Shown: positions 7,542 to 35,351 of the stretch, piece by piece
Numbering within the stretch: position 1 is the first letter of the stretch
Layout: each line of letters opens with the position of its first letter
Assembly: GCA_038824715.1 (NCBI GenBank)
Contig: JAWBPP010000003.1
Coordinates: forward strand, 1-36,472
Origin: Candidatus Anstonellaceae archaeon
Lineage (GTDB): Archaea; Micrarchaeota; Micrarchaeia; Anstonellales; Anstonellaceae
Direction of reading: 5' to 3'
DNA length: 36,472 nt
Program-made: the position numbers and the translations under genes
Notes under the pieces: generated by a model
Databases searched by the model: none
Told to the model about the DNA's origin: nothing
What the model saw: the letters and a program-made list of their open reading frames with translations, nothing else

Positions 7542-8393
7542 ATGGCATCGCCGTCGTTGAAATTCGCATCCGCAGCGCTGCTGCTATTGCTTCTTTCGCC
7601 AATGCTCCACTCGGAGTTCTCGCTGCGCTCGCTTACAGTTTTTGCGAACGTGAACCTTGACGGCAGCGTGAATGTGGAGGAGCGGATTGAAATGGAGATG
7701 AAGGGCACTGTCTCCAAGGAGCTTTACGAGGCGACCCGTTCGGCTTACACGGATCTTGCCACTTGGAAGGCGCGCACAGGCCTTACTGAAATGCGCCACC
7801 ACGTGACAAGAGTCGCGGCAGACGTCAAGGACCTGCGAGTCACGCCTCAGCGCATAGATTATTGCAATTCGATTCTTGGCACCTGCTATGCCACGGTAGT
7901 GATAGACTATATTGTTCCTGCAGGAAAGGAAGGCTCTGGCCTTGTGAAGGTGGACCGCTACAAGCCGCGCACCGCAAAATATTCCCTCATACCAGAAGCG
8001 CTTTCATTCGAGCATACAAAGACAGGCGATCTTGTTCTCCCTTCAGGCACTCTGATTTCCATTGCCGTGCCACAAGCAGCCGAGAAAATCTACTTTTCCA
8101 GCCCCCCGCAGACAGTTGATGCCTCCGAAGGAAACTTCCGCTACGACCAGTCTTCAAACGTGCGCTATTACGTTGGCAGGGACAGGCTGTTCACATGGAA
8201 GGGCGATTCGCTCTCACGCTTCTCGTTCACCTACGAAATAGAGTCCCCTCTTGAATCCGAGGTGCTTGATTTCTTCCGTTCCTCGCAAGGCAGACTAGTG
8301 GAGTTCTTCTTCGGCCCACAGGGGCTGGCAGCCATTCTCATACTTGCCGCAGCAGGCGTTTCCATTTACCAGTTCAACAGGCTGAAATTATAG
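7542..8393 (+). CDS. Hypothetical secreted protein with C-terminal membrane anchor
   Basis: Signal-like N-terminus (AALLLLLLSPMLHS) and C-terminal TM GLAAILILAAAGVSIY. TTTAAGATATTTAC box ends about 16 nt upstream of the ATG (leaderless). Confidence 0.55.
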   Translation: MASPSLKFASAALLLLLLSPMLHSEFSLRSLTVFANVNLDGSVNVEERIEMEMKGTVSKELYEATRSAYTDLATWKARTGLTEMRHHVTRVAADVKDLRVTPQRIDYCNSILGTCYATVVIDYIVPAGKEGSGLVKVDRYKPRTAKYSLIPEALSFEHTKTGDLVLPSGTLISIAVPQAAEKIYFSSPPQTVDASEGNFRYDQSSNVRYYVGRDRLFTWKGDSLSRFSFTYEIESPLESEVLDFFRSSQGRLVEFFFGPQGLAAILILAAAGVSIYQFNRLKL

Positions 8394-10625: not shown

Positions 10626-11324
10626 ATGGCCAGTTTCAAGTCCGTATCCCTTCTCCTAGTTTTCCTTGCCCATTCCTTGTTTGCAGCCGAAGTCACTTTC
10701 AACGTTTCAGGCGTGCGCGCGCTTGTGGAATACCAATACGACATCAATGTATCGCAGGCAATAGTGGGCGTGCGCTACCCAGGGACAATTCATGCAGTCT
10801 GGGCAATCCCACAGTCAGCGCTTTCCGGTCTGGAAGGCAAAACCGTGACTGTTAAAATAACAGGCAGGGCTGAAAATTCCTCGAGCGTGTTTTTCCTCTC
10901 GCCAATAAACACCGACGCTTACGAAACAGAGGTTTACCTATATTGCACTGTTGAAAAAGCAACATGCTCGAACGAATCTGTCCTAACTGCGGACATCCCC
11001 ATAACCATCCTCTTGCCGAGCAACGGCACATTTGAGCAGAAAATCACCCTCAAGGACGAAATCGTGGATTCTTCGCTTGGAGCTCTGCCTTCGTCAGCAG
11101 GAAGCATACTCGACTCGTTTTCCGAATTATTTTCAGGCAACCAGTCTGCGCCAAATGGAACTGGCGCATCAAACTCCTCTGAAGACTTCCTAGAGAGCCT
11201 CAAGCCAGAAGGCAATTCCAAGGACCCAATCGCTTTCCTGAGGCAAAACCAGCTTGTTTCGCTTACTGCGCTTGCGATAGTGGTTGTGATAACTGGCGCT
11301 TATCTGCTAAATTCCCGTGACTGA
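10626..11324 (+). CDS. Hypothetical secreted, probably N-glycosylated protein with C-terminal anchor
   Basis: Signal peptide MASFKSVSLLLVFLAHSLFA. Multiple N-x-S/T sequons (NVS, NSS, NGT, NQS). C-terminal TM LTALAIVVVITGAYLL. Confidence 0.55.
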   Translation: MASFKSVSLLLVFLAHSLFAAEVTFNVSGVRALVEYQYDINVSQAIVGVRYPGTIHAVWAIPQSALSGLEGKTVTVKITGRAENSSSVFFLSPINTDAYETEVYLYCTVEKATCSNESVLTADIPITILLPSNGTFEQKITLKDEIVDSSLGALPSSAGSILDSFSELFSGNQSAPNGTGASNSSEDFLESLKPEGNSKDPIAFLRQNQLVSLTALAIVVVITGAYLLNSRD

Positions 11325-12339: not shown

Positions 12340-13167
12340 ATGCTCTACCCAGAAGACCTGAAACGCGCTGTTGCAGCTGCGCTGGCCGTTCTCCATCTCG
12401 CAACAGGCATTGCGCTGCAGTTCCGGGGCGCAATCAAAAGCTTTGAGCAGCGCCTGCAGGCCAAGCTGGTGGCTGCGCTTTCAGGTACAAAATGCGACTC
12501 GGCAGGCAAGCATTCGCATACCTTGGACGTGGAAGCGCTTTCAAGGCTTGCCAACGGAGAACCGATAACTGTCGTCCGGCCAGGGCTTTTGCTGACGCTT
12601 CGTCCCTATGTCTTCCCGGGCTCCCCCAAGTGCACCGATTCCCTTCTGCAAATCCGCAAGACAAGCTTTACCGAGCTTGCATCGCGCTACACCATCGGGG
12701 CAAAAGCCAGCTTCAGCTTTGACGGGTACGAAATAGAGCTTTCTGAAAATTTCGCGGTAGCCAGGGTATTTGAAGCCGAAGGCAAGGTGAGCTTTCTTTC
12801 CCTTCCGTACAATGTGAGCAGATTCAGGGTATTGGACGAATACAATAGGGAAAAGAACATCTCCTCTGAATGGACGCTGCAGCTTGCAAACCACGCCATG
12901 CTCGTGTGCGTGGAGCAGGCAATCGCCTCGCAAAAAACCGTTCAAGGCAAGGGAAACGGGGCGCCAGAGCCAAGCGATTCACTGCGGCAATTCCGCCAGG
13001 GTGCACCCTCCGAACAAAAATTGGCGCTTCCAACCGTGTCGATTCCAGCTGCTTTTTCAGCCCCCAGCTTCCGCACAGCAATTGGGTCCAAGAACAGCTG
13101 GCTGGCAAGAAGGAATCCCGCCCCAACCCAGCCGCCCAAGCTGTGCCTTGCCAGAAACAAGTGCTGA
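12340..13167 (+). CDS. Hypothetical protein (orphan; coding status uncertain)
   Basis: AAAGTATATAAGC box about 30 nt upstream of ATG 12340 (near-leaderless). No recognisable domain. The region is stop-poor in most frames, so ORF length alone is weak evidence. Confidence 0.35.
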   Translation: MLYPEDLKRAVAAALAVLHLATGIALQFRGAIKSFEQRLQAKLVAALSGTKCDSAGKHSHTLDVEALSRLANGEPITVVRPGLLLTLRPYVFPGSPKCTDSLLQIRKTSFTELASRYTIGAKASFSFDGYEIELSENFAVARVFEAEGKVSFLSLPYNVSRFRVLDEYNREKNISSEWTLQLANHAMLVCVEQAIASQKTVQGKGNGAPEPSDSLRQFRQGAPSEQKLALPTVSIPAAFSAPSFRTAIGSKNSWLARRNPAPTQPPKLCLARNKC

Positions 13168-13215: not shown

Positions 13216-13249
13216 ACGTCTAAAAAAGCATCTGTGGATGCTTTTTTAA
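13216..13249. repeat. Palindromic A6/T6 hairpin motif, copy A (terminator and/or promoter element)
   Basis: ACGTCTAAAAAAGCATC-TGTG-GATGCTTTTTTAA forms an 11-bp stem. It shares both 12-nt arms (ACGTCTAAAAAA ... GATGCTTTTTTA) with copy B at 16118-16150. Confidence 0.5.
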
Positions 13250-13289
13250 CCTTCTCCGCGCTGTTCCTTAAGTTTCTGAGGTGATTTAT

Positions 13290-14330
13290 ATGGTGGACAT
13301 GCAACTATTATCCAAGCTGACTGAATCATTCGGCGTCCCTGGACACGAGCAGGAAATAGCGAAAATAATGTCTGCCGAATTCAAAAAAGCCGGCTACAAG
13401 GTAGAAACCGACAGGTTCGGCAACGTGATTGCAAAGGCGCCCGGGGCGAAGAAAAAGCCCCTCATGCTGGGTGCGCACATGGATGAAATCGGCATGCTTG
13501 TCAAATTCATAAACGAAAAAGGCTTCCTGCGCTTCGTCAAGGTCGGCGGCATAGACAACCGCGTGCTTGTCAACCAGCGCGTGGTAATCGAGACTGAAAA
13601 GGGCAAGATTTACGGGGTAATCGGCAACAAGCCGCCGCATATGCAGCGGCCAGAGGAAATGAAAAACGCTATTGACAACAAGTCGCTTTTCATAGACATT
13701 GGCGCAAAGAACCGCAAAGACGCTGAAAAGATGGGCGTGCGGGTAGGCGACCCAATTGCGTTTGACCTTTCCACAAAAATGCTCAACGGCAAGCTCGTCA
13801 CAGGAAAAGCGCTTGACAACCGTGTGGGCTGCTACATACTCTTGGAAATCGCAAAGCGCGTGAAAAGCAAGAACGTCGTCCTTGTGGGCACAGCACAGGA
13901 GGAAGTCTCCACGTTCGGCAAGGGCGCAATGGTGGCTGCATACAACCTTGAGCCATCTGCCTTCATAGCGGTCGACACATCGATTGCAGGAGACCATCCA
14001 GAGATGAGCGAGGATGAGGCCCTCATACACATCGGCAAGGGGCCTGCGCTTTGCCTTGTGGAGGCAGGAGGCAGGGGCAATGTTGCCGACACGCAGCTTC
14101 GCAACCAGTGCATTTCTGTTTCAAAGAAGTCGAAAATCAACTGCCAGCTTGAGGTAATCGAAGGGGGCGCAACTGACGCGGCAAGCGTCTATGGCGAGCG
14201 GGGGGGCATACCGTCCATCGCAGTCTGCGTTCCAACCCGCTACATACATTCAAACGTTGCGGTCTGCTCGCTTGAAGACATCGAAAAGACCTCGAACTAT
14301 CTCGTGAAATTGATTGACGAGCTCGCATAA
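13290..14330 (+). CDS. M42 family (TET/FrvX-type) aminopeptidase
   Basis: GAHMDEIG, KALDNRVGC and GTAQEEVSTFG motifs. GAGGTGA 6 nt upstream of ATG 13290. Confidence 0.85.
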   Translation: MVDMQLLSKLTESFGVPGHEQEIAKIMSAEFKKAGYKVETDRFGNVIAKAPGAKKKPLMLGAHMDEIGMLVKFINEKGFLRFVKVGGIDNRVLVNQRVVIETEKGKIYGVIGNKPPHMQRPEEMKNAIDNKSLFIDIGAKNRKDAEKMGVRVGDPIAFDLSTKMLNGKLVTGKALDNRVGCYILLEIAKRVKSKNVVLVGTAQEEVSTFGKGAMVAAYNLEPSAFIAVDTSIAGDHPEMSEDEALIHIGKGPALCLVEAGGRGNVADTQLRNQCISVSKKSKINCQLEVIEGGATDAASVYGERGGIPSIAVCVPTRYIHSNVAVCSLEDIEKTSNYLVKLIDELA

Positions 14331-14347
14331 GCAATTCATGGCTTACG

Positions 14348-14890
14348 ATGCAAAAGGGATTCCTCTCCTTTGCACTTGGCGCAGTCTTCCTTCTTTCCAT
14401 TGTCTCATCAGGCGCCATCATCTCCTCTTCCAAGCCTGACACTTCATACGAGAAATACCGCCGCCTCCTTGTGGAAGGGGTGGCGATAAAGCAGGCGCTC
14501 TATTCATCGCTTTCCGATGCCGCCATCTCTTCGCTTGCCTCTTCAAGCGAAGCAGAGGGCAGCCAATATGCTGCAGTTCGCGCAGCCGTCTTTGCGCGCT
14601 TCCTGGAGTTCCAAGAGAAGCTTCGTGAAGATGGCTACGACGCTCTCTTTTGGTGCGGGGAAATTTCAGAAGAAGAACGCAGCAGCGCAGCCTTGCAGAT
14701 GCTTGAAGAAAAACGTTCAATACTGCCATCCGGCTCTATTGCTGCAGCAGCCTGCGCAGATTCTTTAGACGTCAACCTGCTTCAGCGCAGCATCCACATG
14801 AAAGATGTCGGTTTTTCATTTTATGACTCAAGCCTTGGGCTGGGAGTTGCTGCAAAACTCCCTTCTTCTTACGAGGTTGAATTCAAATGA
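14348..14890 (+). CDS. Prepilin-like protein 1 (class III signal-peptide-like N-terminus)
   Basis: MQKG|FLSFALGAVFLLSIVSSGAII N-terminus. 17 nt after the M42 peptidase stop. Its stop overlaps the next start (ATGA at 14887-14890). Confidence 0.55.
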   Translation: MQKGFLSFALGAVFLLSIVSSGAIISSSKPDTSYEKYRRLLVEGVAIKQALYSSLSDAAISSLASSSEAEGSQYAAVRAAVFARFLEFQEKLREDGYDALFWCGEISEEERSSAALQMLEEKRSILPSGSIAAAACADSLDVNLLQRSIHMKDVGFSFYDSSLGLGVAAKLPSSYEVEFK

Positions 14891-15246
14891 ACAGAATCCC
14901 TTTTTCAAAAGCGCAGGCAACTCTTGAGGCGCTCATGTCGCTTGCCACCCTCCTCTTGGCACTCGCGCTTTTCATTGCATCTGCGCAACATCTTGGCTCG
15001 AAGCTCAATGCCCTCTCACAATCATCGTCCGAGCGCTACCTCCTTTCGCACGAGGCACTTTCAATAGACACTGCGGCAGCTCTGCCTGGCACATCAGCCC
15101 CACGCATCTTCCATGGTTTTCCTTCAGGAAAAGGCAACGGCCTTCGCTCCAGAATCTCGAACGTTTCACAACCGGTTTTCAGCAGGATTTCATCGGATTC
15201 GAGAGGTAATTTTTATGCTGTGCACGAATGCTGCGAACCGATATAG
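14887..15246 (+). CDS. Prepilin-like protein 2
   Basis: MNRIPFSKA|QATLEALMSLATLLLALALFIAS gives Q at +1 and E at +5, as in archaeal/bacterial type IV pilins. ATGA overlap with the preceding gene. Confidence 0.6.
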   Translation: MNRIPFSKAQATLEALMSLATLLLALALFIASAQHLGSKLNALSQSSSERYLLSHEALSIDTAAALPGTSAPRIFHGFPSGKGNGLRSRISNVSQPVFSRISSDSRGNFYAVHECCEPI

Positions 15247-15721
15247 CGCAAACATACGCCAGCTGCCGCGCGCAGGCTGGCAATGCAATGCCCTGCAGGC
15301 ATTCTTTTCCCTAGATGCAATGCTTGCTCTTGCCATTGCAATCTTCGCATTCGCAGCGTTCTCCTTGCTTCTCTCGTCGGCAGGCGCATTTGCAGCTTCG
15401 CAGTCAAAACAAGCATCGTCAGAATCGCTCGCCCTGAGTTTTTCCTCGCACATTCTTGACAACTGCGCAGCGCGCCCCCCTTACAGCTCTCCTGATTCCT
15501 ACTCCAAAACAAACGAACTGGATGAAAATTGCCTGCATTCCATCCAGATGCAAGATGTGCTTGCACTCTCAGGCACAGCCTTCGCAAGCATCTCGCTGTA
15601 TGGTGCTGAAGGAGAGCTCTTTCATTCCGAATCAGGGACAAAAGGCGCAGAGGTTTTCTGCGCAAGGCGCCTCGCGTCAGTTTCAGGAAAAATGTCCCGC
15701 TTGGAGGTTTGCCTATCATGA
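15215..15721 (+). CDS. Prepilin-like protein 3
   Basis: ATG 15215 with GAGAGGT 8 nt upstream; 32-nt overlap with the previous gene. Hydrophobic segment LQAFFSLDAMLALAIAIFAFAAFSLLL follows a 27-aa polar leader. Alternative ATG at 15320. Confidence 0.5.
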   Translation: MLCTNAANRYSANIRQLPRAGWQCNALQAFFSLDAMLALAIAIFAFAAFSLLLSSAGAFAASQSKQASSESLALSFSSHILDNCAARPPYSSPDSYSKTNELDENCLHSIQMQDVLALSGTAFASISLYGAEGELFHSESGTKGAEVFCARRLASVSGKMSRLEVCLS

Positions 15722-16083
15722 GAAAAAAAGCTTTCCTGGCAAGCTTTGAAGCAGCATCAGCAATCTTGCTCCTAATCGTTGCAGCATCGGCACTCCAGCT
15801 TTACCAATTCCAAAAAACCTTTCCGCAGGAATTTTTCCTCTGCTCTGACGCAGCCGTCCTAATTTCAAAATCAGGCGATTTCTCCCGCGATTCTCTTTTG
15901 GCGCAGGCACAGGAAATATCTGAGCTTTCCGACATGTGCATCTCGATCCAAATCGCAGGTGAAGAGCTATTTTCGCCCTGCGGGAAGGAAAACGGAAGAG
16001 TATTCGCATTCACTCTTCCAGTCTGGCGCGAAGGGTTGCAAGAGCTCCAGGTCCGCTGCGAATGGCAGTCACAAAACCATTGA
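15718..16083 (+). CDS. Prepilin-like protein 4
   Basis: MRKKA|FLASFEAASAILLLIVAASAL. ATGA overlap at 15718-15721 and GGAGG 9 nt upstream. Confidence 0.55.
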   Translation: MRKKAFLASFEAASAILLLIVAASALQLYQFQKTFPQEFFLCSDAAVLISKSGDFSRDSLLAQAQEISELSDMCISIQIAGEELFSPCGKENGRVFAFTLPVWREGLQELQVRCEWQSQNH

Positions 16084-16117
16084 GGCGCTTTTTTTATCTT
16101 CGTAGGGTCCAGGCCCT

Positions 16118-16150
16118 ACGTCTAAAAAATCATTGACGATGCTTTTTTAT
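16118..16150. repeat. Palindromic A6/T6 hairpin motif, copy B
   Basis: ACGTCTAAAAAATCAT-TGAC-GATGCTTTTTTAT. Preceded by a T7 run (16089-16095) and the hairpin CGTAGGG-TCCAGG-CCCTACG (16101-16120). Confidence 0.5.
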
Positions 16151-16187: not shown

Positions 16188-17201
16188 ATGCGCGCATCTG
16201 TCCTAATCCTCCTGCTTGCAGTTCTCGCGTCTTCGGCATCCGCATATGAGCTTGCCATAAAGGCTACGATTTCGCAGGGAACCCTTGCAGTCGGCACCAA
16301 TGTTTCTGTGATGACCGGCGGCGTGGAACTCTACTCGCAGAAGGCTGGCACTGACGGCTATGCCCGCTTCAACGTAACAGAAGGCAGCTATTTTGTCATA
16401 CTGCGCCGCTACCCATATCCGACACAGGTGCTTCTCCAGACAGTGGAATCGGACGTTGACCGCACCTTCACAATCAACCCAGTCATGTCCTACTCGGGGC
16501 TTTTCGGCCAAATCACCGGCCCAGGCTCGTTCGAAGGCACAACTGTGTCGGTCTATTCAGGAAGCACGCTCGTGAAAAAGGCAAGCACGGACAAGAACGG
16601 CTTTTATTCAATGGCATTTATCCCTGAGGGCAATTACGACATTCTAGTGGAATCGCCAGGCTTTTCGCAGAAAAAGGAGCGCAGGAGCCTCGCGGTTTCA
16701 GAGTATGTGCAGTTCGATGCCCGGCTGGAACAAGAAGCGCCGGTTGCAAAGCCGCAATACTCTCTTGCAGTTCCATCGTCTGCAGAGCAAGCATCAGTCA
16801 TCACAGCCACTCTGATGCTCGGCGGGCAACCTGTCTCTGGCCAGATAGTTTATGTTTCCACTCCGTCGGGCGAAGTGCAGATAAAAACTGACGAATCCGG
16901 CGTTGCGAAGCTGAATGCAGCAGCGCCAGGGACCTATTCGTTCAGGTTCTCTAACCTCACCGCATCAACAGTCGTGCCTTCCAAGGTTGCGCCCAAGCCG
17001 AAAGCTGAGCCCCCGGTGCAGCCGCCCGCGCAGGAACCGCAGCAGCCGCAGCCAGCGCAGGATTATTCAGCCGCCCTAATCGCGTTTGCAGCCATAGCGG
17101 TCGCAATCGGCGCGCTTTTGGGCGCAGCGCTCCTGTTCAAGGCGCTAACAGGAAAGCACGGCAAGCCCAAGCACGGGCACAGCCATCACAAGAAGGAATA
17201 G
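16188..17201 (+). CDS. Surface protein with three carboxypeptidase-regulatory-like beta-sandwich repeats, Pro-rich stalk, TM anchor and His/Lys tail
   Basis: Signal peptide MRASVLILLLAVLASSASA. Repeats such as TTVSVYSGSTLVKKASTDKNGFYSMAFIPEGNYDILVESPGF. C-terminus PKPKAEPPVQPPAQEPQQPQPA + TM + KHGKPKHGHSHHKKE. GGTGA upstream of the ATG. Confidence 0.65.
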   Translation: MRASVLILLLAVLASSASAYELAIKATISQGTLAVGTNVSVMTGGVELYSQKAGTDGYARFNVTEGSYFVILRRYPYPTQVLLQTVESDVDRTFTINPVMSYSGLFGQITGPGSFEGTTVSVYSGSTLVKKASTDKNGFYSMAFIPEGNYDILVESPGFSQKKERRSLAVSEYVQFDARLEQEAPVAKPQYSLAVPSSAEQASVITATLMLGGQPVSGQIVYVSTPSGEVQIKTDESGVAKLNAAAPGTYSFRFSNLTASTVVPSKVAPKPKAEPPVQPPAQEPQQPQPAQDYSAALIAFAAIAVAIGALLGAALLFKALTGKHGKPKHGHSHHKKE

Positions 17202-17273
17202 GGCTGCAAGGTGCGAACATGCATCTCTCGCCAGAAAAAATCATCGCCGCAAGAGCGGCAAAAGGGAAGTAGC

Positions 17274-18230
17274 ATGCCGTTTTCCCCTGAAAAATTCATC
17301 CGAGAGGCGGTTTCCGGTATAAAATCAGCCGCAGGCAAGGGCAAAGCAATCATAGCTGTTTCAGGAGGGGTGGATTCCTCAGTCGCAGCCGTCCTCTCTT
17401 CCCGCGCCCTTGGCAAAAGCATCCGTTGCATATTCGTGGATACCGGGCTCATGCGCAAGGACGAAGGGGTGAATGTCAAGCGCATGCTTTCGTCTGCAGG
17501 CGTGAAGCTTGAGATAGTGGATGCAAGCAGGCAGTTCTTCTCTGCGCTTTCCGGAGTGGAGGAGCCGGAGAAAAAACGGAAGATAATTGGCGAAAAATTC
17601 ATCCGGGTTTTCGAGGCCGAGGCAAAAAAATGGGGGGCGGAATTCCTTGTGCAGGGCACAATCGCGCCTGACTGGATAGAATCTGGCGGAGGAAGCAGGC
17701 ACACCATAAAGTCGCACCACAATGTCGGTGGCTTGCCGGAGAAAATGCACATGAAGCTCATCGAGCCACTGCGCGACTTGTACAAGCACGAGGTGCGTGC
17801 AGTGGCGGTAGCGCTAGGCCTTCCTCCGGAAATTTCGCAGAGGCAGCCGTTTCCTGGCCCTGGACTTGCAGTAAGGATAGTGGGCGAGATAACTCCTGAA
17901 AAAGCTGAGATAGTGCGCGAAGCCTGCGCAATTGTCGAGGAGGAGCTTGAGGCAGCCGGTTCCCGCGGCGCCATAGAAAAGCCTTGGCAGTATTTTGCCG
18001 CGCTTCTCCCCACGAAAACGGTCGGTGTGAGGGGCGACGAGCGGGCTTACCAATACACCGTGGTCGTGCGTGCAGTGCGCTCGCTTGATGGCATGACAGC
18101 AAACTTCTCGCACATCCCGCCAGAAATCCTGCAGAAAATCTCCACAAGGATAACGAATGAAATCCGGGCAGTTGGGAGAGTGCTCTACGACATAACGAAC
18201 AAGCCGCCAGCAACTGTGGAGCTGGAATGA
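17274..18230 (+). CDS. guaAB: GMP synthase subunit B (ATP pyrophosphatase)
   Basis: PP-loop SGGVDSSV and the conserved C-terminal dimerisation region (RGDERAYQYTVVVRAV). Start placed at ATG 17274 (MPFSPEKFI). Confidence 0.9.
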   Translation: MPFSPEKFIREAVSGIKSAAGKGKAIIAVSGGVDSSVAAVLSSRALGKSIRCIFVDTGLMRKDEGVNVKRMLSSAGVKLEIVDASRQFFSALSGVEEPEKKRKIIGEKFIRVFEAEAKKWGAEFLVQGTIAPDWIESGGGSRHTIKSHHNVGGLPEKMHMKLIEPLRDLYKHEVRAVAVALGLPPEISQRQPFPGPGLAVRIVGEITPEKAEIVREACAIVEEELEAAGSRGAIEKPWQYFAALLPTKTVGVRGDERAYQYTVVVRAVRSLDGMTANFSHIPPEILQKISTRITNEIRAVGRVLYDITNKPPATVELE

Positions 18231-18802
18231 AGGTGCTTCGAATGGCGATTTTGATTGTGGACATGGGCAGCCAGTACACCCATGTCATATGGCGCACTGT
18301 CCGAGAGCTTGAGCACGAAGGCAAAATCGTTCCAAAAGAAGTTTCCGCAGCCGAGCTTTCGAAAGCATCAGCAGTCATACTCTCGGGAGGGCCTTCTTCG
18401 GTGAACACCGACCAGTTCTTTTCCCTCCCAGCATTCATCCAATCTTCAAGAGTTCCCATCTTAGGAATATGCCTCGGCCAGCAGCTCATAGCGCACTGCC
18501 TTGGCGGCAAGGTTGTCAAGGGCAAGAATGCGGAATATGGAATTTCCAAAATAGAGGTGGATTCGCCAGGAGTTTTGCTTGCAGGCCTCCCCAAATCCTT
18601 CAGCGCATGGGTCTCTCATTTTGACGAGGTTGCAAAAATGCCGCCAGGCTTTGCCTCGCTTGCGCACTCAGACACCTGCAAAATAGAGGCAATGGAAAAC
18701 CCGAAGAAAAAGATTTTCTCAGTGCAGTTCCACCCGGAAGTCTGGCACACGGAGCACGGCGAGAAAATAATCGGGAACTTCCTCGAGCAGTTGCAACCCT
18801 AG
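18227..18802 (+). CDS. guaAA: GMP synthase subunit A (glutamine amidotransferase)
   Basis: Nucleophile motif ILGICLGQQL and VQFHPEV. ATGA overlap with guaAB at 18227-18230. Confidence 0.9.
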   Translation: MKVLRMAILIVDMGSQYTHVIWRTVRELEHEGKIVPKEVSAAELSKASAVILSGGPSSVNTDQFFSLPAFIQSSRVPILGICLGQQLIAHCLGGKVVKGKNAEYGISKIEVDSPGVLLAGLPKSFSAWVSHFDEVAKMPPGFASLAHSDTCKIEAMENPKKKIFSVQFHPEVWHTEHGEKIIGNFLEQLQP

Positions 18803-18895
18803 TTTTCGCGGTATTGGCCTATATCTTCGTTGATGTGTCGAAGCCTATAAGGCATACAGATGTTTTATAATGGTATTTAGTGTAAATATCAAGTC

Positions 18896-19426
18896 ATGGC
18901 AACAGCAGCATTTCAAGAGGCTAAAATAGCTTCTGCGTCTCGAGTGAAAGCCGCGCCTGCAAAACCGCTTTCTCAAACAGAGCTTCTGAAAGTAGAAGAG
19001 ATAAGAAAAGATATACGCAGCTGCGTGGTTCGCCTGCCAGGGCTCAAAATACCAAAAAGCGTGAAAAAGCGAGTTGCGCACCTCTCTCGGAGTGCAAAGG
19101 AACGTCTCTGGGAAAAGCTGAACATCGACACCAGCGCAATCTTCTTCAGGAAGCTTAGCGAGCTGCATAGGGAGAATGCCGGGTTATCTGTGGAGCTGAA
19201 CTCGGAAACGAATGACGTTAAGCTCATATCTCTAAACCTCGACTCTTCAAAAGCAGAAAAAACAGTAGCAGTGTCCAAAGGGATGGTGCTTGAGATGTCT
19301 ACGGTACAAAATCTCTTTTTCAGTATGCACCTTGATAAGAAAAAATACTCCACGCACGACAAGGCAGGCGTCGCACAGACTATACACTTCGCCGCGCAGG
19401 TTCTTATGAAAAAGTCTCAGAAATGA
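18896..19426 (+). CDS. Hypothetical protein (orphan)
   Basis: TTTTATAATGG box about 28 nt upstream of the ATG (leaderless). Lys-rich, no recognisable domain. Confidence 0.4.
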   Translation: MATAAFQEAKIASASRVKAAPAKPLSQTELLKVEEIRKDIRSCVVRLPGLKIPKSVKKRVAHLSRSAKERLWEKLNIDTSAIFFRKLSELHRENAGLSVELNSETNDVKLISLNLDSSKAEKTVAVSKGMVLEMSTVQNLFFSMHLDKKKYSTHDKAGVAQTIHFAAQVLMKKSQK

Positions 19427-19499
19427 AAATGCAGGCTCAAGTTGAGCTTGCGCCCAACTGGCCAGTGCATTTATGTGAGCAGAAATGCAGGGGGCAGGA

Positions 19500-19579
19500 T
19501 TTTCACCCAGTTCAACCCGACGGGAATCTTCTGGGGGTGAACCATCAGGGGGTCTTCAGTTTGCATGCGCCCCCTAGGG
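19500..19579 (-). other. tRNA intron 2, non-canonical position inside the T-loop (80 nt)
   Basis: Interrupts TTCAAA|T. The 3' part of the insert (GGGTTGAACTG) is complementary, with bulges, to exon/intron CAGGTTCAAACCC. The boundary can slide within the A run. Confidence 0.65.
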
Positions 19580-19610
19580 TTTGAACCTGCGACGGCCTAA
19601 GCCATCAGAT

Positions 19611-19646
19611 TGCTTATTGCACAATTGCTACAAGCAAGTGCGGGAT
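19611..19646 (-). other. tRNA intron 1, canonical 37/38 position (36 nt)
   Basis: Lies between CTCAAG and ATCTGA. Contains CTTG complementary to the anticodon-loop CAAG, plus TTGCTT/AAGCAA internal pairing. The boundary can slide by one A. Confidence 0.7.
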
Positions 19647-19693
19647 CTTGAGTCTGACGCGTTAACCAAGCTCCGCCACCCCTGCATTTTTTC

Positions 19694-19763
19694 TACAGGG
19701 GGTCAAGTCCGGAAGGACTTGGCGGGTATTTGTGCGAAGCACAAATCTGACCGCCACCCCTGC
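19694..19763 (-). ncRNA. Unclassified 70-nt structured element with tRNA-like acceptor stem (strand uncertain)
   Basis: GCAGGGG/CCCCTGT 7-bp terminal helix, GGCGG/CCGCC helix enclosing the ATTTGTGC/GCACAAAT hairpin, and an AAGTCC-TTCC-GGACTT hairpin. Its first 13 nt (GCAGGGGTGGCGG), plus the two preceding genomic bases AT (19764-19765), are identical to the tRNA-Leu 5' end and its two upstream bases, giving a 15-nt exact repeat. Confidence 0.3.
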
Positions 19764-19792
19764 ATGGTATTTCGTATAATGAGAAAGCCTCT

Positions 19793-21112
19793 TTAAGCTG
19801 GCGGAACATCAGGCGGCTGCGCCCCTGGCTCGGAAGGAGGGGCAGTATCAGCAGGCTTCTTCTTCGAAATGTAGTAGAATATTCCGTAAAGCACAATCAG
19901 TATCGCAACCATGTAAATTGCAGCAGTGACAGGGGTTATGGCTCCAATGTCAAACACGTCTTTTTTCTGGGTCGTCGGGTTCACAACGGGGATATCGGGC
20001 TTTGGCGCCTCCTTTATGACATAAGTTCCGCTCTGCGTCGCGGTGTTGCCTTCCTTGTCCGAAACCCTGACGCTGTAGCGCACAGGCTTGCCTGGCGCCT
20101 GTGCCGGTATCTTTGCCTCGAATGCATTGTAGCCCACGGTGTAAGCCTGCACGCTCTTCTCCGCCCCGTCCACAGTGTATGATATCGCAACTGATTCTAT
20201 CCCGCTTGCAGCAGAGCCCGGGTCTTCCACAAAAAGGCTCACAGTTCCAACTCCCTCTGGCGAGACAATCGCCCTAAACTCCTTTATGTTTGGCTTTTGC
20301 CTGTCAAATGTCACTGTCGCGCTGTCCTGCTGCGAAAGGTCAAGGGGCAGGCTCTTTGTGGCTTCGCCGTATTTTATCAATATCTGCGGGGTCGGGTTGG
20401 TGATGTTCTCAAAGCTTACCTTTCCGTTTCTGTCAGCGCGTTCTTCCTGCCCGTCCAATTCCACAGAGGCCTGCACTGGGTTCTTATCATCGTCAGTAAT
20501 GGTCAGTTTCAGGCTATACACTCCGATTGTTATGTCGAGCGTCTTGTCGCCTGAAAGCTCCACTGAGTCGGTCTTCAGCCCGTTCAAGTATTCTGCCCTG
20601 ACAACATGGCTTCCGGGGGGAAGCCTAAAGCCTGCGCTTCCCACATTGTCAGTCGTCTTCACCTGGTCGCCCACAGTAACACGGGCAGATAGGGGCGCGC
20701 CCTTCTGGTTGTGCACCGTGACAAACAAGTAATAGGCAGGTATCTGGAAATCCACGATTCTGACTCTGTCATCATTCGGGTCTGCAGTCATCGTGCTGCT
20801 CGCGTTGCGGTTGCCATATCTGACATAAAGAGTGTACGTATAGTCGGTAGAGGTTTCAATCTCTTCGTAATTGGTGAACACGATATCGGCAAAACCGCTC
20901 GCGTTTGTAAGTTTGGGCTTGGTCCTGCCGGTCCCGAACATCGAACTCAATTGGTATTCAGCATAAACCTGCGCTCCCTCAACAGGCCTGAACTGCTCGT
21001 CATAAACCTGGACAGTGAGCCTCTGGGTGTATTTCGCCTCGGCAAGTGGAAGAAAAGCAGCGGCAATCAGGATGGCAAGGAGAAATGCAACTCGCATATC
21101 CCTAATTCGCAT
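19793..21112 (-). CDS. Surface protein with multiple carboxypeptidase-regulatory-like beta-sandwich repeats and C-terminal TM anchor
   Basis: Signal peptide MRVAFLLAILIAAAFLPLAEA. An AT-rich TATA-like box at 21118-21130 favours a leaderless start at ATG 21097. Repeats such as SARVTVGDQVKTTDNVGSAGFRLPPGSHVVRAEY. C-terminal TM plus a Pro-rich tail. Confidence 0.65.
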   Translation of the reverse strand: MRIRDMRVAFLLAILIAAAFLPLAEAKYTQRLTVQVYDEQFRPVEGAQVYAEYQLSSMFGTGRTKPKLTNASGFADIVFTNYEEIETSTDYTYTLYVRYGNRNASSTMTADPNDDRVRIVDFQIPAYYLFVTVHNQKGAPLSARVTVGDQVKTTDNVGSAGFRLPPGSHVVRAEYLNGLKTDSVELSGDKTLDITIGVYSLKLTITDDDKNPVQASVELDGQEERADRNGKVSFENITNPTPQILIKYGEATKSLPLDLSQQDSATVTFDRQKPNIKEFRAIVSPEGVGTVSLFVEDPGSAASGIESVAISYTVDGAEKSVQAYTVGYNAFEAKIPAQAPGKPVRYSVRVSDKEGNTATQSGTYVIKEAPKPDIPVVNPTTQKKDVFDIGAITPVTAAIYMVAILIVLYGIFYYISKKKPADTAPPSEPGAQPPDVPPA

Positions 21113-21182: not shown

Positions 21183-21246
21183 TTGCATATGCGAATGTTG
21201 CATCAAGCGACCAAATTTGTACGGCTGGGAAAGCCGGAGGGTTTAC

Positions 21247-21708
21247 ATGGGGATTTTCCAAAAAGGGCAAGGTGCCACCGAATACCTGGTTCTCCTTGCA
21301 GTAGTCCTGATCATCGCACTCGTGTCAATAGCGCTCCTCGGGTTCTTCCCAGGGCTTGCAACAGACGCGAGGATAACGCAGTCCAACTCCTACTGGCGGG
21401 GCGAAGCAAGGCCGTTTGCAATCCTTGAGCACACAGTCGGAACAAGCGGAAACGCGACGCTCATCGTCCAGAACTATGACGCTTCAGGAACGCTCACTGT
21501 AACGAACCTCACTGTTGGAGCAGGTTCCAATGGGACTTCAATGTCCTTTGCTCCTGGGGAAATACGAACAGTCTCGGTCGCCAACGTGGTTTCCTCTCCA
21601 TCTGCAGGGCAGGTCTATGACCTAGCAGTCACGTTCTCCTACAACACCTCGAACGGCGTGGCTTCCAAGCAATACGGTTCAAAGAACATAATCGGGAAAG
21701 TGTCTTGA
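21247..21708 (+). CDS. Archaeal type IV pilin (class III signal peptide, DUF361-like), paralogue A
   Basis: MGIFQKG|QGATEYLVLLAVVLIIALVSIALLGFFPG. Alignable over its whole length with the ORF at 34825-35286. Several N-x-S/T sequons. Confidence 0.8.
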   Translation: MGIFQKGQGATEYLVLLAVVLIIALVSIALLGFFPGLATDARITQSNSYWRGEARPFAILEHTVGTSGNATLIVQNYDASGTLTVTNLTVGAGSNGTSMSFAPGEIRTVSVANVVSSPSAGQVYDLAVTFSYNTSNGVASKQYGSKNIIGKVS

Positions 21709-25808: not shown

Positions 25809-27089
25809 ATGCGTCCATTCATGCTTGCAATTGCAGTGCTGGTTGTTCTTTCATTTTCATTCGCAGCCATTGGGCCCAAAGTGCTTCCAGTGGGGCCGGT
25901 CGGCCAGTGCACGCTTTCTCCCTCAAGCATCGATGTCGGTTTTAGCGCACAGACTTCGGTCGTCCCATCGTGCACAGTGGACGGCGAAGAAGTGCCCTGC
26001 CCAGGGCTTTCCTGGAGTGCGACAATAGGGACGCTTAGCGGCGGACCATTCTCGGTTACGCATAACTCTGGCAGCACAGCCGGCACAGGCACGCTCTCAG
26101 CCGCAGGCCCGGGCTTTTCATGTTCCATTCCAGTAACAGTCCGAGCTCCCTCTTCTGGGGGTTCAGGCGGAGGAAGCGGCTCCACGGGCGGAGCATCCTA
26201 CAGGACGGCAACCACTGTTTCAACCACCTGCGCAGGCAAAGAGGGCGCGATAAAGGTCGCCTATCTTGTGAAATCAGCCCCAAGCGCAATTGTGGATGTG
26301 TTCTACACAGGCGATGGCGGCTTCAAGAAAATCTTCACGCAGACGGTGAATTCCAACGCCACAATCCCATTCACGCCTCCTCATGTCGGTTCCTATGAGC
26401 TCCACGTTTCCCTTGGCGCAGACCAAACAACTGCGACCTTCCAAGTTCCGGCATGCACTGGCACTGACAGGGCGCAAGAAACCATGGTGAACCTGCAGCC
26501 AGTGCGCGAGCTGGTTTTCTCCAAAACAATCGATTACGGCAAAGGGATTTCCAAGGAGTTCAAAGTGTACAAGGTGACTGAGAGCTCAACAGAAAGCTAC
26601 ACTACCGAAGTAGCACTCACCTATGCGAACATCGGGGCGAGCACAATACCTTCCATTACCATAACCGATTCGGTTCCAAAAAGCGTGGTTTCCTCAAACG
26701 GGCAGCTCCTGTTTGACAACAAGCCATCTGCATTCTCAATTACTGATTCAATTTCCTTCTCGTGGGATGCCTCTCTTGTTTCCCCTGGCCAGAAACTGCG
26801 CTATTCCTACCGATTCCAGAGGCTTGTGACCGCGCAAATGCTCGAGAGTTTCGAACCTCCACGCGCTGCGATTGGCAATTCTCCGTTCCCCGTGATTGGG
26901 GCAGGGGTTGCAGGGGGAGCACAGCCTGACTTGCTTGCCTCAATGGTGGACTTTGCAGGCGTCAACATCCCGTTCTTCCTGCTAGTTGTGGCAGGTGTGA
27001 GCCTGCTTGCAGTGGCACTTTTCCTCTCGTTCGTCTTTGGCTCGAAAAAGAGAAGCTACGGCATAGAAAAAGACAGCGGGCAGCAGTAG
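25809..27089 (+). CDS. Hypothetical secreted protein with C-terminal TM anchor
   Basis: Signal peptide MRPFMLAIAVLVVLSFSFAA, Gly/Ser linker SSGGSGGGSGSTGG, C-terminal TM FFLLVVAGVSLLAVALFLSFVF. Confidence 0.55.
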   Translation: MRPFMLAIAVLVVLSFSFAAIGPKVLPVGPVGQCTLSPSSIDVGFSAQTSVVPSCTVDGEEVPCPGLSWSATIGTLSGGPFSVTHNSGSTAGTGTLSAAGPGFSCSIPVTVRAPSSGGSGGGSGSTGGASYRTATTVSTTCAGKEGAIKVAYLVKSAPSAIVDVFYTGDGGFKKIFTQTVNSNATIPFTPPHVGSYELHVSLGADQTTATFQVPACTGTDRAQETMVNLQPVRELVFSKTIDYGKGISKEFKVYKVTESSTESYTTEVALTYANIGASTIPSITITDSVPKSVVSSNGQLLFDNKPSAFSITDSISFSWDASLVSPGQKLRYSYRFQRLVTAQMLESFEPPRAAIGNSPFPVIGAGVAGGAQPDLLASMVDFAGVNIPFFLLVVAGVSLLAVALFLSFVFGSKKRSYGIEKDSGQQ

Positions 27090-32537: not shown

Positions 32538-34007
32538 CTAACCGAGGAAATTCCGCTTCCATGCGGTTTTCATTATCGCATCGCTCAACCTTGCTCGGTT
32601 GTCCGAAAGCGCAAGGTCCATCACTTCCTCTGCAGCCTCGGAATACTCTCCGTCCTCCTCGAGCGCAAACGCGCCAAGGGTTTTTTCAATGCCCTTGCCT
32701 ATTCCAGAAGGCAGACGCCTCACATTTTCCATGCAGACATATCGTGTGGAGTCGGAAATGTCCTCGTCAAAAGAAACATACATCTCGCGCACAGTGTCTA
32801 GCTCTTTTTCGCTAAGGGCAGACAGGCCAAGCAACTCCGGCGGAATACCGATGGAGTAAAGCGCAGAGCAGAACGGTATTGCCCTGGGAAGGGAAATCCC
32901 TCTGAGCGAACGCGAATAGCCGAAAAGCCCTATGTGGAGCTTCCTTGCTCTTCTGGAGGGGGTGTGCCTTGAAAGAGTGGCAATCAACGGGGACAAGGCG
33001 GCAACTTCTTTCTGATATTGTTCGATTGCCTTATCTACTACGGCATTCGCTCTCGTCTCATCCACCTGCAGGGGCTTTTTCCGTGCAGTTTCTCCAATCT
33101 CCTCCACGCCCCTCCTCACCACGCTTTCCGGATAATCGTACTTGAACGAGGACTGCAGCGTGAATGTCTGCACCGATGGATATTCCTTGAGGCAATTTTT
33201 CGTATTTGTCGGCTTTAGGTTGCCGCGAAACGGTGCGCTTCCCACTCCGATAATGGGCAGTATTTCAACCGAAGTTTTTTCCTCAAGCGCATGGAGCTTC
33301 TGCAGGCACAACTTGTTCAGAAGCACTGCAGAAAGCGAGCCGTAGTTTAGCGCAGGGTCGCTTCTCGCAAGGAACACGCGCTGGTATTCGAATTCCTTGC
33401 CTTCAATGTATTCGCCCACAATCCTGTCAGCATTTGAAAGAGAGTCCCTGTCTTCCACAAGCGGGATGAGCGAAATTTCCTCAGGCGCGAACTTCCCCAC
33501 CCACTCGCTCACAGTCAAGTCCCCGACGCGCGTGTCCTTCTTTCCAACCACGACTTTCCTGTAATAATCGTAAATCCTCTGCAGCTCCTTGCCAGAGGTG
33601 CACATGGGCAGTATCACTTCCCAGACAGGCGCCGATGCTTCCCCTGATGCCGCAGCCGCAATGTCAAAATTCCTGGGTATGGATTCAAGCGACTCGAGAA
33701 GTATTTTCCCCTGCGCGCGCTCGACGTTTGGGTTGGGCACGCGAAGCGTCAGGTAAATGTCAGCCCCAAGACGGTTTTCGGAAAAGAATTTCGGGTAGCG
33801 GGAAAGCAGCTTTTCAACGACGTGGTTGTCCACTTCCTTGCCTTCGCAGTCCCACATCTGCTCCTGCATCTCAAGGTGCGAAAAAACATAATAGCACTCC
33901 TTGATTTCGGTCTCGCCGGCAAGAACTTCGCTGTCTGAAAAGAACGGCGAGTTCACATTGTCCGGGTGCTGCGTGCTCATGCAGCGCGAAACTTTCCTTT
34001 TTGCCAT
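32538..34007 (-). CDS. ppcA: Archaeal-type phosphoenolpyruvate carboxylase
   Basis: N-terminal RKVSRCMSTQHPDNV signature of the PepcA family; length about 490 aa. ATG 34007 preferred over GTG 34016. Confidence 0.85.
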   Translation of the reverse strand: MAKRKVSRCMSTQHPDNVNSPFFSDSEVLAGETEIKECYYVFSHLEMQEQMWDCEGKEVDNHVVEKLLSRYPKFFSENRLGADIYLTLRVPNPNVERAQGKILLESLESIPRNFDIAAAASGEASAPVWEVILPMCTSGKELQRIYDYYRKVVVGKKDTRVGDLTVSEWVGKFAPEEISLIPLVEDRDSLSNADRIVGEYIEGKEFEYQRVFLARSDPALNYGSLSAVLLNKLCLQKLHALEEKTSVEILPIIGVGSAPFRGNLKPTNTKNCLKEYPSVQTFTLQSSFKYDYPESVVRRGVEEIGETARKKPLQVDETRANAVVDKAIEQYQKEVAALSPLIATLSRHTPSRRARKLHIGLFGYSRSLRGISLPRAIPFCSALYSIGIPPELLGLSALSEKELDTVREMYVSFDEDISDSTRYVCMENVRRLPSGIGKGIEKTLGAFALEEDGEYSEAAEEVMDLALSDNRARLSDAIMKTAWKRNFLG

Positions 34008-34019
34008 TGCTCCCACAAC

Positions 34020-34824: not shown

Positions 34825-35286
34825 CTAGGAGTACTTGCCCACAAGGTTCTTTGCGCCAGCCTGCGTGCCTGCAATGCCGCTCGGGCTGTTGTAGGTTATC
34901 TCCATCTTGAAGTCGTAAAGCGTCCCGGCGCCGGTACCTGCAAGCCCCGCGTTGTTGATTGTCACGGTGTAGGTGCTTCCGCTTCCGACCATTACGTTCG
35001 GGCTGACACTCACGCTCCCGACTTTCACTGCTGTCAGGTTGTATGCACCGTCAGCCTTCTTGTTCTGGAGAACGAGCGTTGCGTTCCCGTCGTTGCTTAT
35101 GCCGTAGTCGATTATGGCAAACGGCTGCGCCTCTCCGGTCCAGTATGCCTGCGACTGCTGAATCTTCGCGTCGGACGAAAGCCCGGGGAAGAATCCAAGC
35201 AGGGCAAGGGCCACAAGCGCGACAATCAGCACCGCGCCAAGGAGGACCAGGTACTCTGTCGCACCCTGTCCTTTCATAATGCCCAT
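34825..35286 (-). CDS. Archaeal type IV pilin (class III signal peptide, DUF361-like), paralogue B
   Basis: MGIMKG|QGATEYLVLLGAVLIVALVALALLGFFPG. GAGGGG 5 nt upstream of ATG 35286. Conserved GNAT sequon shared with paralogue A. Confidence 0.8.
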   Translation of the reverse strand: MGIMKGQGATEYLVLLGAVLIVALVALALLGFFPGLSSDAKIQQSQAYWTGEAQPFAIIDYGISNDGNATLVLQNKKADGAYNLTAVKVGSVSVSPNVMVGSGSTYTVTINNAGLAGTGAGTLYDFKMEITYNSPSGIAGTQAGAKNLVGKYS

Positions 35287-35351
35287 CCAAACCCCTCGCA
35301 TCGCCTAATTTTGGCGTTTTACTTTGACGTTCTACCACTTCGGATGGGAGC

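Follow-up and report, generated by a model that had tools for sequence, protein, structure and literature searches.

A strictly ordered cassette of four pilin-like genes in Micrarchaeota, probably encoding a minor-pilin-like surface complex

Four consecutive genes of Candidatus Anstonellaceae archaeon (Micrarchaeota; Micrarchaeia; Anstonellales; Anstonellaceae), which we call A, B, C and D, probably encode a minor-pilin-like surface complex. They lie in a stretch of 36,472 nucleotides (nt), referred to here as the window, that spans positions 1–36,472 of the forward strand of contig JAWBPP010000003.1 (assembly GCA_038824715.1). The four genes are real. As judged from their sequences, their products make up four new, previously unannotated families, and each begins in the manner of a type IV prepilin. 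We call these proteins pilin-like because of this N-terminal design and because of a predicted structure of C, not because of homology. The reading that we favour, with a probability of about 0.5, is that A to D are four different type IV pilin-like proteins that are cleaved and form a minor-pilin-like complex serving filaments of the DUF361 type.

Results

The N-termini were compared across 99 distinct sequences, aligned family by family at the predicted cleavage site (marked ↓). Glycine or alanine occupies position −1 in 99 of 99, behind a variable, basic leader in which K or R predominates at −2 to −4 (the window's own C has Q at −2). The consensus of A is [KR]G↓[FV][LI]SF. Every one of its 16 true members has K/R at −2 followed by G at −1, the S at +3 is invariant and an acidic residue is absent; a seventeenth row, from locus L020, was a regular-expression match inside a truncated open reading frame (ORF) and was left out. 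In B, for which the consensus is [KR][GA]↓Q-x-S-L-E-A-L-L, the G/A at −1, the Q at +1 and the E/D at +5 are each present in 23 of 23 sequences. The C family reads [AG]↓F-[WF]-S-I-D-A-A-F, with A/G at −1 and D at +5 in 30 of 30 and F or Y at +1, and its remotest members, at about 20% identity, retain both the D at +5 and the layout G/A↓[FV]x[ST]xD. Finally, the 30 distinct N-termini of D follow [AG]↓F-L-F-S-L-E-A-A, where A/G at −1 and E at +6 are found in all 30 and the A at +7 is invariant.

Conservation along the proteins follows the same boundary. The mean column identity is 0.28–0.52 in the leaders of B, C and D, 0.77–0.91 over mature residues 1–10 and 0.58–0.70 beyond mature residue 25, so that it rises exactly at the predicted cleavage site, and mature residues 1–10 are the best-conserved block of each protein. 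Across families that share only 25–45% identity overall, the motif holds, as do the G/A at −1 and the acidic residue. Because it is conserved across relatives, this N-terminal pattern goes far beyond chance. At the level of sequence this is how a pilin looks: the leader varies, the small residue at −1 does not, and the hydrophobic helix behind it is conserved and would stay in the mature protein. A discarded Sec signal or a plain membrane anchor would be expected to look different.

A first-pass annotation of this DNA had assigned class III (type IV prepilin-like) N-termini to all four proteins, together with an S/T-L/F-E/D-A signature and an acidic residue near +5. The class III assignment is supported by the motif, by the G/A at −1 and by the jump in conservation at the predicted cleavage site. 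The signature stands for B, C and D and has to be given up for A, which lacks the acidic residue; the residue is at +5 in B and C, as proposed, and in D, provided that the cut comes after the G/A, it is at +6. An acid at +5 is a hallmark of bacterial proteins of this kind and optional in archaeal ones.

A crude motif scan of the six frames of the window found this layout in only eight ORFs, three of which are A, B and D; C escaped the scan because of its Q at −2. Two more are the clear pilins of the KG↓QGATEYLVLL type to which the first-pass annotation had already pointed, and which are indeed present, one on each strand, both with sub-threshold matches to PF04021 (Table 1). In profile–profile comparison the four families are unrelated apart from the N-terminal motif. 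This motif lines up in register from one family to another, and also with the DUF361 pilin of the window, below significance; the N-terminus of B, in particular, aligns in register with the DUF361-type pilin. We considered whether the four proteins might be recent paralogues and rejected this, since the profile–profile alignments covered just the N-terminal motif and were not significant.

The genes themselves are chained on the plus strand. A and B, and likewise C and D, are joined by ATGA stop/start overlaps (14887–14890 and 15718–15721), while B and C share 32 nt (15215–15246), with the sequence GAGAGGT seven bases 5′ of the ATG of C. In its reading frames, protein lengths and junctions, this arrangement is exactly the one first described. 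An in-frame ATG at 15113, the first in the ORF listing, precedes the start of C at 15215; the latter is the better choice because homologues begin MC(K/R)N, which aligns with the window's MLCTN. An antisense ORF (15213–15719, minus strand) was treated as spurious, as conservation resides in the plus-strand proteins.

Table 1. Coordinates of the cassette genes and of associated features. Positions refer to the window unless a related locus is named; ↓, predicted cleavage site.
Feature	Coordinates	Strand	Remarks
Palindromic A6-GCATC/GATGC-T6 element and TATA-like T-rich box	13216–13248	+	About 40 nt upstream of M42 start; contains GATGCTTTTTTA
M42 family aminopeptidase	13281–14330	+	PF05343, E = 1.5e-92; real start probably ATG 13290
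Gene A	14348–14890	+	180 amino acids (aa); leader MQKG, then FLSFALGAVFLL; no acidic residue; conserved Cys103/Cys136
Gene B	14887–15246	+	119 aa; leader MNRIPFSKA, then QATLEALMSL; Q at +1, E at +5
Gene C	15215–15721	+	168 aa; 28-aa leader ending QA, then FFSLDAMLAL; D at +5; Cys149/Cys166
Gene D	15718–16083	+	121 aa; leader MRKKA, then FLASFEAASAILLL; E at +6; four invariant cysteines
D-to-CPD spacer	16089–16149	+	T7 run 16089–16095; hairpin CGTAGGG/CCCTACG 16101–16120; GATGCTTTTTTA copy 16138–16149
CPD surface protein	16188–17201	+	PF13620, E = 1.6e-13; CarboxypepD_reg-like beta-sandwich domains; always after D
DUF361-type pilin	21217–21708	+	MGIFQKG↓QGATEYLVLL, probable start 21247; PF04021 20.4 bits, cut-off 23.7
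Second DUF361-type pilin	34825–35301	−	MGIMKG↓QGATEYLVLL; PF04021 21.6 bits, below cut-off
766-aa ATPase, locus L011	4733–7033		
766-aa ATPase, locus L022	3788–6088		

We fetched 40 related loci (41 with the window) and scored their six-frame ORFs with hidden Markov models of A, B, C, D and the neighbouring proteins. As far as the contigs reach, 41 of 41 loci have the order M42 peptidase, A, B, C, D, beta-sandwich protein (CPD), GMP synthase subunit B, GATase subunit. The M42 gene is directly 5′ of A in every locus that extends that far, each cassette family is single-copy in the locus, and the order is maintained even where C is only some 25–30% identical to the C of the window. A fixed four-gene order in related genomes, proposed from the outset as a check on the cassette, was thus found throughout. 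In one locus (L016, 8911–10458) about 1.5 kb is inserted between D and CPD; this is the sole interruption of the A-B-C-D-CPD adjacency observed, and the conserved TATA-like box still stands before CPD.

A single-sequence search of 5.8 billion proteins returned only ten homologues of A, at 38–87% identity. A word-indexed profile search with B returned 70 homologues, all unannotated and none with a Pfam domain, and the taxon-labelled ones among them all came from Micrarchaeota; looking up the exact sequence of B brought no contig to light. For C, a profile search gave 80 homologues, again all unannotated, of which those with a taxon label were all from Candidatus Micrarchaeota/Micrarchaeia, and an exhaustive HMMER search with the C profile over 1.84 billion cluster representatives found 56 clusters only. 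Going by these searches, C is restricted to the Micrarchaeota lineage. The B and C profile searches provided no bridge to known pilin families. The D family comprises the members from the fetched loci; a peptide-pattern scan of genome contigs used narrow patterns and returned one species.

The AlphaFold2 model of C (80 sequences; predicted local distance difference test score, pLDDT, 84.1) consists of a disordered leader, a continuous helix of 54 residues (30–83), two short helices and a four-stranded antiparallel sheet, with the nearly invariant Cys149 and Cys166 located in the last two strands. As modelled, this architecture is pilin-like, and by description is the pilin 'lollipop'. The model of A (10 sequences; pLDDT 85.6) has a helix at residues 3–27, a break at the invariant P30-D31, helices at 35–65 and 70–94, and an alpha/beta domain. 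Of the pilin fold, in which a helix of some 50 residues packs on an antiparallel sheet, C has the secondary-structure elements, with its helix and four strands, and A has a broken helix and extra helices. The conserved cysteine pairs of A (Cys103/136) and C (Cys149/166), and the four cysteines of D (C42, C74, C88 and C114 in the 121-aa protein that starts at M15718, or, counted along the first A7 row, C45, C77, C91 and C117), which are invariant in 22 sequences, fit an extracellular location.

When the B family was scanned against Pfam member by member, PF04021 (Class_IIIsignal) was the commonest match, in 6 of 23 members and below threshold (best E = 0.015); the window's B had no PF04021 match, and the corresponding scans of the C and D families matched no pilin model. 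ComGF (E = 0.089), T2SSK_1st (0.09) and ComGE (0.23) appeared as isolated weak matches, all far below threshold. In the PDB, the C profile came closest to a Methanospirillum archaellin, 5tfy, whose N-terminal helix it matched at E = 0.21 (not significant), with the D at +5 falling on archaellin E5. Searches of Pfam and NCBIfam, and PDB sequence and profile searches with B, C and D, gave no significant homology to known minor-pilin families.

The sequence around the cassette also bears on how it may be transcribed. The end of the M42 gene is 17 nt from the start of A, and because this spacer has no T-rich box or other promoter-like element, M42-A-B-C-D is a probable single transcript. The palindromic element upstream of M42 is the probable promoter of this unit, and the spacer between D and CPD probably holds both the terminator of the cassette and the promoter of the next gene (Table 1). 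The 12-mer GATGCTTTTTTA has two occurrences in the window, one in each of these two places. Among related loci, most keep a T-rich TATA-like box and a GAGGTG Shine-Dalgarno site upstream of M42, and a TTTTTAT box with a GGTGAT/GGTGG Shine-Dalgarno site before CPD is conserved in those inspected. There are thus probably two transcription units, M42-A-B-C-D and CPD-guaA. Scanning for promoters and terminators of the bacterial type told us little, the organism being an archaeon. We rejected translational coupling of D to CPD, for which a 4-nt overlap had been called in locus L012: judging by the TATA-like box and Shine-Dalgarno site that relatives also keep, CPD would have a later start codon, GTG, and a promoter of its own; the overlap is probably an over-extended gene call.

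The repeated 12-mer is part of a longer element of about 33 nt, ACGTCTAAAAAA(G/T)CAT...GATGCTTTTTTA, which is present at 13216–13248 (the palindromic copy) and at 16117–16149, some 40 nt upstream of M42 and CPD. The two copies may be a shared promoter or operator bracketing the M42-A-B-C-D unit.

The CPD protein carries a Sec-type signal, a Pro/Gln-rich stalk, a C-terminal transmembrane helix and a basic His-rich tail, features that point to an anchored envelope protein rather than a secreted tip adhesin. A tip-adhesin role appears unlikely because of its apparent own promoter and its C-terminal membrane anchor. The suggestion of the first-pass annotation that this protein is a tip or adhesion partner of the cassette is accordingly weakened by the Sec signal, the anchor and the conserved TATA-like box and Shine-Dalgarno site that follow D. 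We also considered CPD as the S-layer protein of Micrarchaeota and rejected this, as the S-layer protein described, that of Micrarchaeum harzensis, is 101 kDa.

Discussion

How might these four proteins work? We infer that, through their overlapping start and stop codons, a single transcript (probably M42-A-B-C-D) would yield A to D in roughly equal amounts. Each would insert into the membrane, its short basic leader staying on the cytoplasmic side, and a prepilin peptidase of the PibD/FlaK/EppA type, encoded elsewhere, would cut after the invariant G/A. The conserved hydrophobic N-terminal helices would then pack together, so that the four proteins, once extracted from the membrane, would assemble in a set stoichiometry into a heteromeric, pilin-like complex of low abundance, which would be a minor-pilin set. 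The complex would serve a type IV pilus machine, also encoded elsewhere, in starting or capping filaments of DUF361-type major pilins; the pilin at 21217–21708 could be such a major pilin and have the cassette proteins as partners. As the largest protein and the sole member without an acidic residue, A may be the end subunit and act as the cap. A more ambitious version, in which the cassette arose independently as the archaeal equivalent of the four-protein priming and tip complex of bacteria, with A as cap and B to D as adaptors, and sets pilus binding and host recognition, seems to us doubtful.

A number of results weigh against the minor-pilin reading. Pfam scans, which covered about 45 candidate ORFs across the 36-kb window, turned up neither an ATPase of the T2SSE/FlaI type nor a platform protein of the T2SSF/FlaJ type nor a prepilin peptidase there, just as the first-pass annotation had held, and the flanks of the cassette are an M42 peptidase and a GMP synthase, not a pilus assembly operon. 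In favour of the reading, a divergent ATPase of 766 aa lies 0–2.5 kb upstream of M42 in seven related loci (L011, L021, L022, L023, L024, L032 and L036), and its best PDB relatives are CpaF, Archaeoglobus GspE (afGspE) and FlaI. Against it, this ATPase reaches 23.1 bits with PF00437, for which the cut-off is 24.9, and no TadC/FlaJ platform gene stands beside it in the related loci; the link that it offers to a machine of the Tad/Epd type is weak. The literature is favourable: pilin genes of archaea frequently lie apart from the machinery, and groups of some five minor pilins are a recurrent feature of archaeal type IV pilus loci (PMC4858521), Micrarchaeia genomes (metagenome-assembled) have been reported to carry the type IV pilus genes FlaIJK (PMC8561730), and DPANN archaea carry an Epd-like archaeal type IV filament (TFF) 'system 1' (preprint 10.64898/2026.04.22.720090).

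Family and fold recognition count against it as well. No curated pilin or prepilin model in Pfam or NCBIfam matched A, B, C or D at threshold, where models such as PF04021, PF07790, PF07963 or the NCBIfam pilin models might have been expected. Foldseek, proposed in the first pass as a check on the predicted models, went the other way: searches of the PDB with A and C retrieved no pilin, the best match of A having E = 0.2 and the top 50 of C being ribosomal protein uS3 at E of about 0.01. The helix in the model of A breaks after residue 27 and gives way to two more long helices, which is less typical of a pilin. Set by eye against what we take to be the FlaFind pattern, A and C fail, the leader of A having only 3–4 residues, and the acidic residue of D is at +6. 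In addition, gene order is generally highly conserved in this lineage, housekeeping genes included, and for this reason adjacency alone says little about function.

The same proteins could be pilin-like and processed by a peptidase and nevertheless form a short, membrane-anchored pseudopilus or surface complex with CPD, concerned with envelope architecture or host contact and comparable to the pseudopilus of the type II secretion system (T2SS) or the Sulfolobus bindosome. We regard this as a possible but less likely alternative. It would account for the beta-sandwich CPD that comes after D in every locus and is membrane-anchored, not secreted, and it agrees with the lack of machinery in cis in the window. 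S-layer-like proteins with a C-terminal anchor are found repeatedly in type IV pilus loci of archaea (PMC4858521), and the Micrarchaeum S-layer protein may require a separate membrane stalk. CPD, however, appears to have its own conserved promoter-like box and is grouped with guaA, which leaves adjacency as its sole link to the cassette, and a pseudopilus, too, requires an ATPase and a platform protein.

Alternatively, A to D could be ordinary single-pass membrane proteins held by an uncleaved N-terminal signal anchor, their class III likeness being convergent and their complex unrelated to type IV filaments. Such proteins would match no curated pilin family and retrieve no pilin in fold searches, as was the case (for A and C in the latter); the operon partner is a cytoplasmic M42 aminopeptidase, and the helix of A is long enough to span the membrane and ends in a break, beyond which lies a separate domain. 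Hard to explain in this way are the invariant G/A placed exactly at the boundary of leader and helix in four unrelated families, the invariant D/E five or six residues into the transmembrane helix and the sharp step in conservation at that boundary. Moreover, C is predicted to have a single uninterrupted helix of 54 residues running into a globular domain, as in a pilin, and true pilins of the KGQ...E layout are encoded in the same window. We consider a signal anchor unlikely. It is highly improbable that signal peptidase I removes the N-termini as Sec signal peptides and so releases small secreted proteins, even though the neighbouring surface proteins use Sec signals and B has A-x-A-like motifs past its hydrophobic stretch (IASA↓Q, AHAAKA↓Q). 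The hydrophobic stretches, at 20–25 residues and with a charge, are too long and too polar for a Sec h-region; they show the strongest conservation in each protein, where a discarded signal peptide would drift; and A, C and D lack a conserved A-x-A site.

The minor-pilin reading finds its closest archaeal model in the Epd (EppA-dependent) pilus of Methanococcus maripaludis, a representative of TFF 'system 1', which has the minor pilins EpdA/B/C (MMP0233, 0236 and 0237) and a DUF361-type major pilin encoded elsewhere (PMC4858521; 10.64898/2026.04.22.720090). Both systems comprise several distinct, small class III signal proteins that are co-transcribed (co-transcription and cleavage are predictions in the case of the cassette), and in both, as we propose for the cassette, minor pilins would work with a major pilin from another locus. 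The clear pilins of the window are of the KGQ...EY DUF361 type, B likewise has Q at +1, and the ATPase adjacent to the locus in some relatives is closest to CpaF/FlaI. The Epd minor pilins, however, lie inside an 11-gene locus with an ATPase, a platform protein and EppA, whereas the cassette is detached from such genes and sits behind an aminopeptidase gene. In addition, A, C and D have F, V or Y at +1 instead of Q, and A to D show no detectable homology to curated pilin families.

Among bacterial systems, the cassette resembles GspH-I-J-K of the T2SS and FimU-PilV-PilW-PilX of type IVa pili in having four distinct pilin-like genes in a fixed order with overlapping frames. The layout of C, G/A↓F-x-x-x-D, is close to the bacterial G↓FTLIE, its C-terminal cysteine pair recalls the disulphide loop of pilins, and one member of the cassette, A, lacks the acidic residue. 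GspK and PilX are not known to carry this residue either. The bacterial sets belong to another domain of life and share no detectable homology with the cassette; they are found within or beside machinery operons, not between an M42 peptidase and a GMP synthase, and their role in a tip complex has been demonstrated, while that of the cassette is proposed.

Stand-alone archaeal pilin genes (PilA/DUF361; Makarova et al. 2016, PMC4858521) likewise lie away from ATPase, platform protein and peptidase, but they are singletons or tandem paralogues and predicted major pilins, whereas the cassette consists of four unrelated single-copy families in strict order. The sugar-binding proteins of the Sulfolobus bindosome (10.64898/2026.04.22.720090) share with A to D a class III N-terminus and, possibly, a place at the cell surface instead of in a long filament; they are large substrate-binding proteins encoded beside ABC transporters, in contrast to A to D, which have 120–180 aa and no recognisable binding domain. 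Compared with DUF361/EppA-substrate pilins ([KR]G↓Q), the Q at +1 is found among A to D in B only.

Micrarchaeota are tiny, host-dependent archaea, and how they attach to their hosts is largely unknown. Here, a single-copy block of five genes is conserved across the lineage, and four of its products are pilin-like yet annotated as hypothetical. This makes the cassette proteins concrete candidates for the host-attachment apparatus of Micrarchaeota. Current family models overlook a set of class III signal proteins in archaea, to which the cassette contributes four families. The kind of system is already well described in archaea, with pilin-like genes away from the machinery, minor pilin sets and anchored S-layer-like partners. 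What is notable about the cassette is its strikingly stable order and its unusual site behind an aminopeptidase gene, away from assembly genes. If the tip or priming interpretation were true, it would be this complex, and not the major pilin, that decides what the pilus binds and which host cell is recognised.

Other genes of the window and related loci

The window also holds archaeal housekeeping genes, namely PheRS, RNase Z, a split GMP synthase, an archaeal phosphoenolpyruvate (PEP) carboxylase, L7Ae and NDK. The PEP carboxylase (32538–34016, 492 aa), which lies downstream of the pilin at 35301, was considered as a pilus ATPase and rejected on its Pfam match.

Anchored surface proteins are unusually abundant in this short stretch of genome. 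A second beta-sandwich surface protein (19793–21112, minus strand; CarboxypepD_reg/Big_1, Sec signal, C-terminal transmembrane helix) is divergent from the plus-strand pilin at 21217–21708. Locus L001 has a divergent pair of matching sizes and orientation at 14216–15517 and 15670–16137, encoding a 433-aa protein with a faint CarboxypepD_reg match and a 155-aa ORF, the latter compared by size only. Three further plus-strand ORFs of the window (7542–8393, 10626–11324 and 25809–27089), all without a Pfam match, combine an N-terminal Sec-like signal with a C-terminal transmembrane helix.

Within the roughly 1 kb that separates RNase Z and M42 is an ORF of 275 aa (12340–13167) with no Pfam or NCBIfam match. 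The same interval is a 164-nt spacer in the close relative L001 and contains a 182-aa ORF, compared by length alone, in L010; the 275-aa ORF may be a lineage-specific insertion or no gene at all. Downstream of the conserved block in L010, a contig of 182 kb, positions 16623–20075 encode an RVT_1 reverse transcriptase fragment, a ParE toxin and a phage-type integrase, which suggests that a mobile element has inserted close to the locus.

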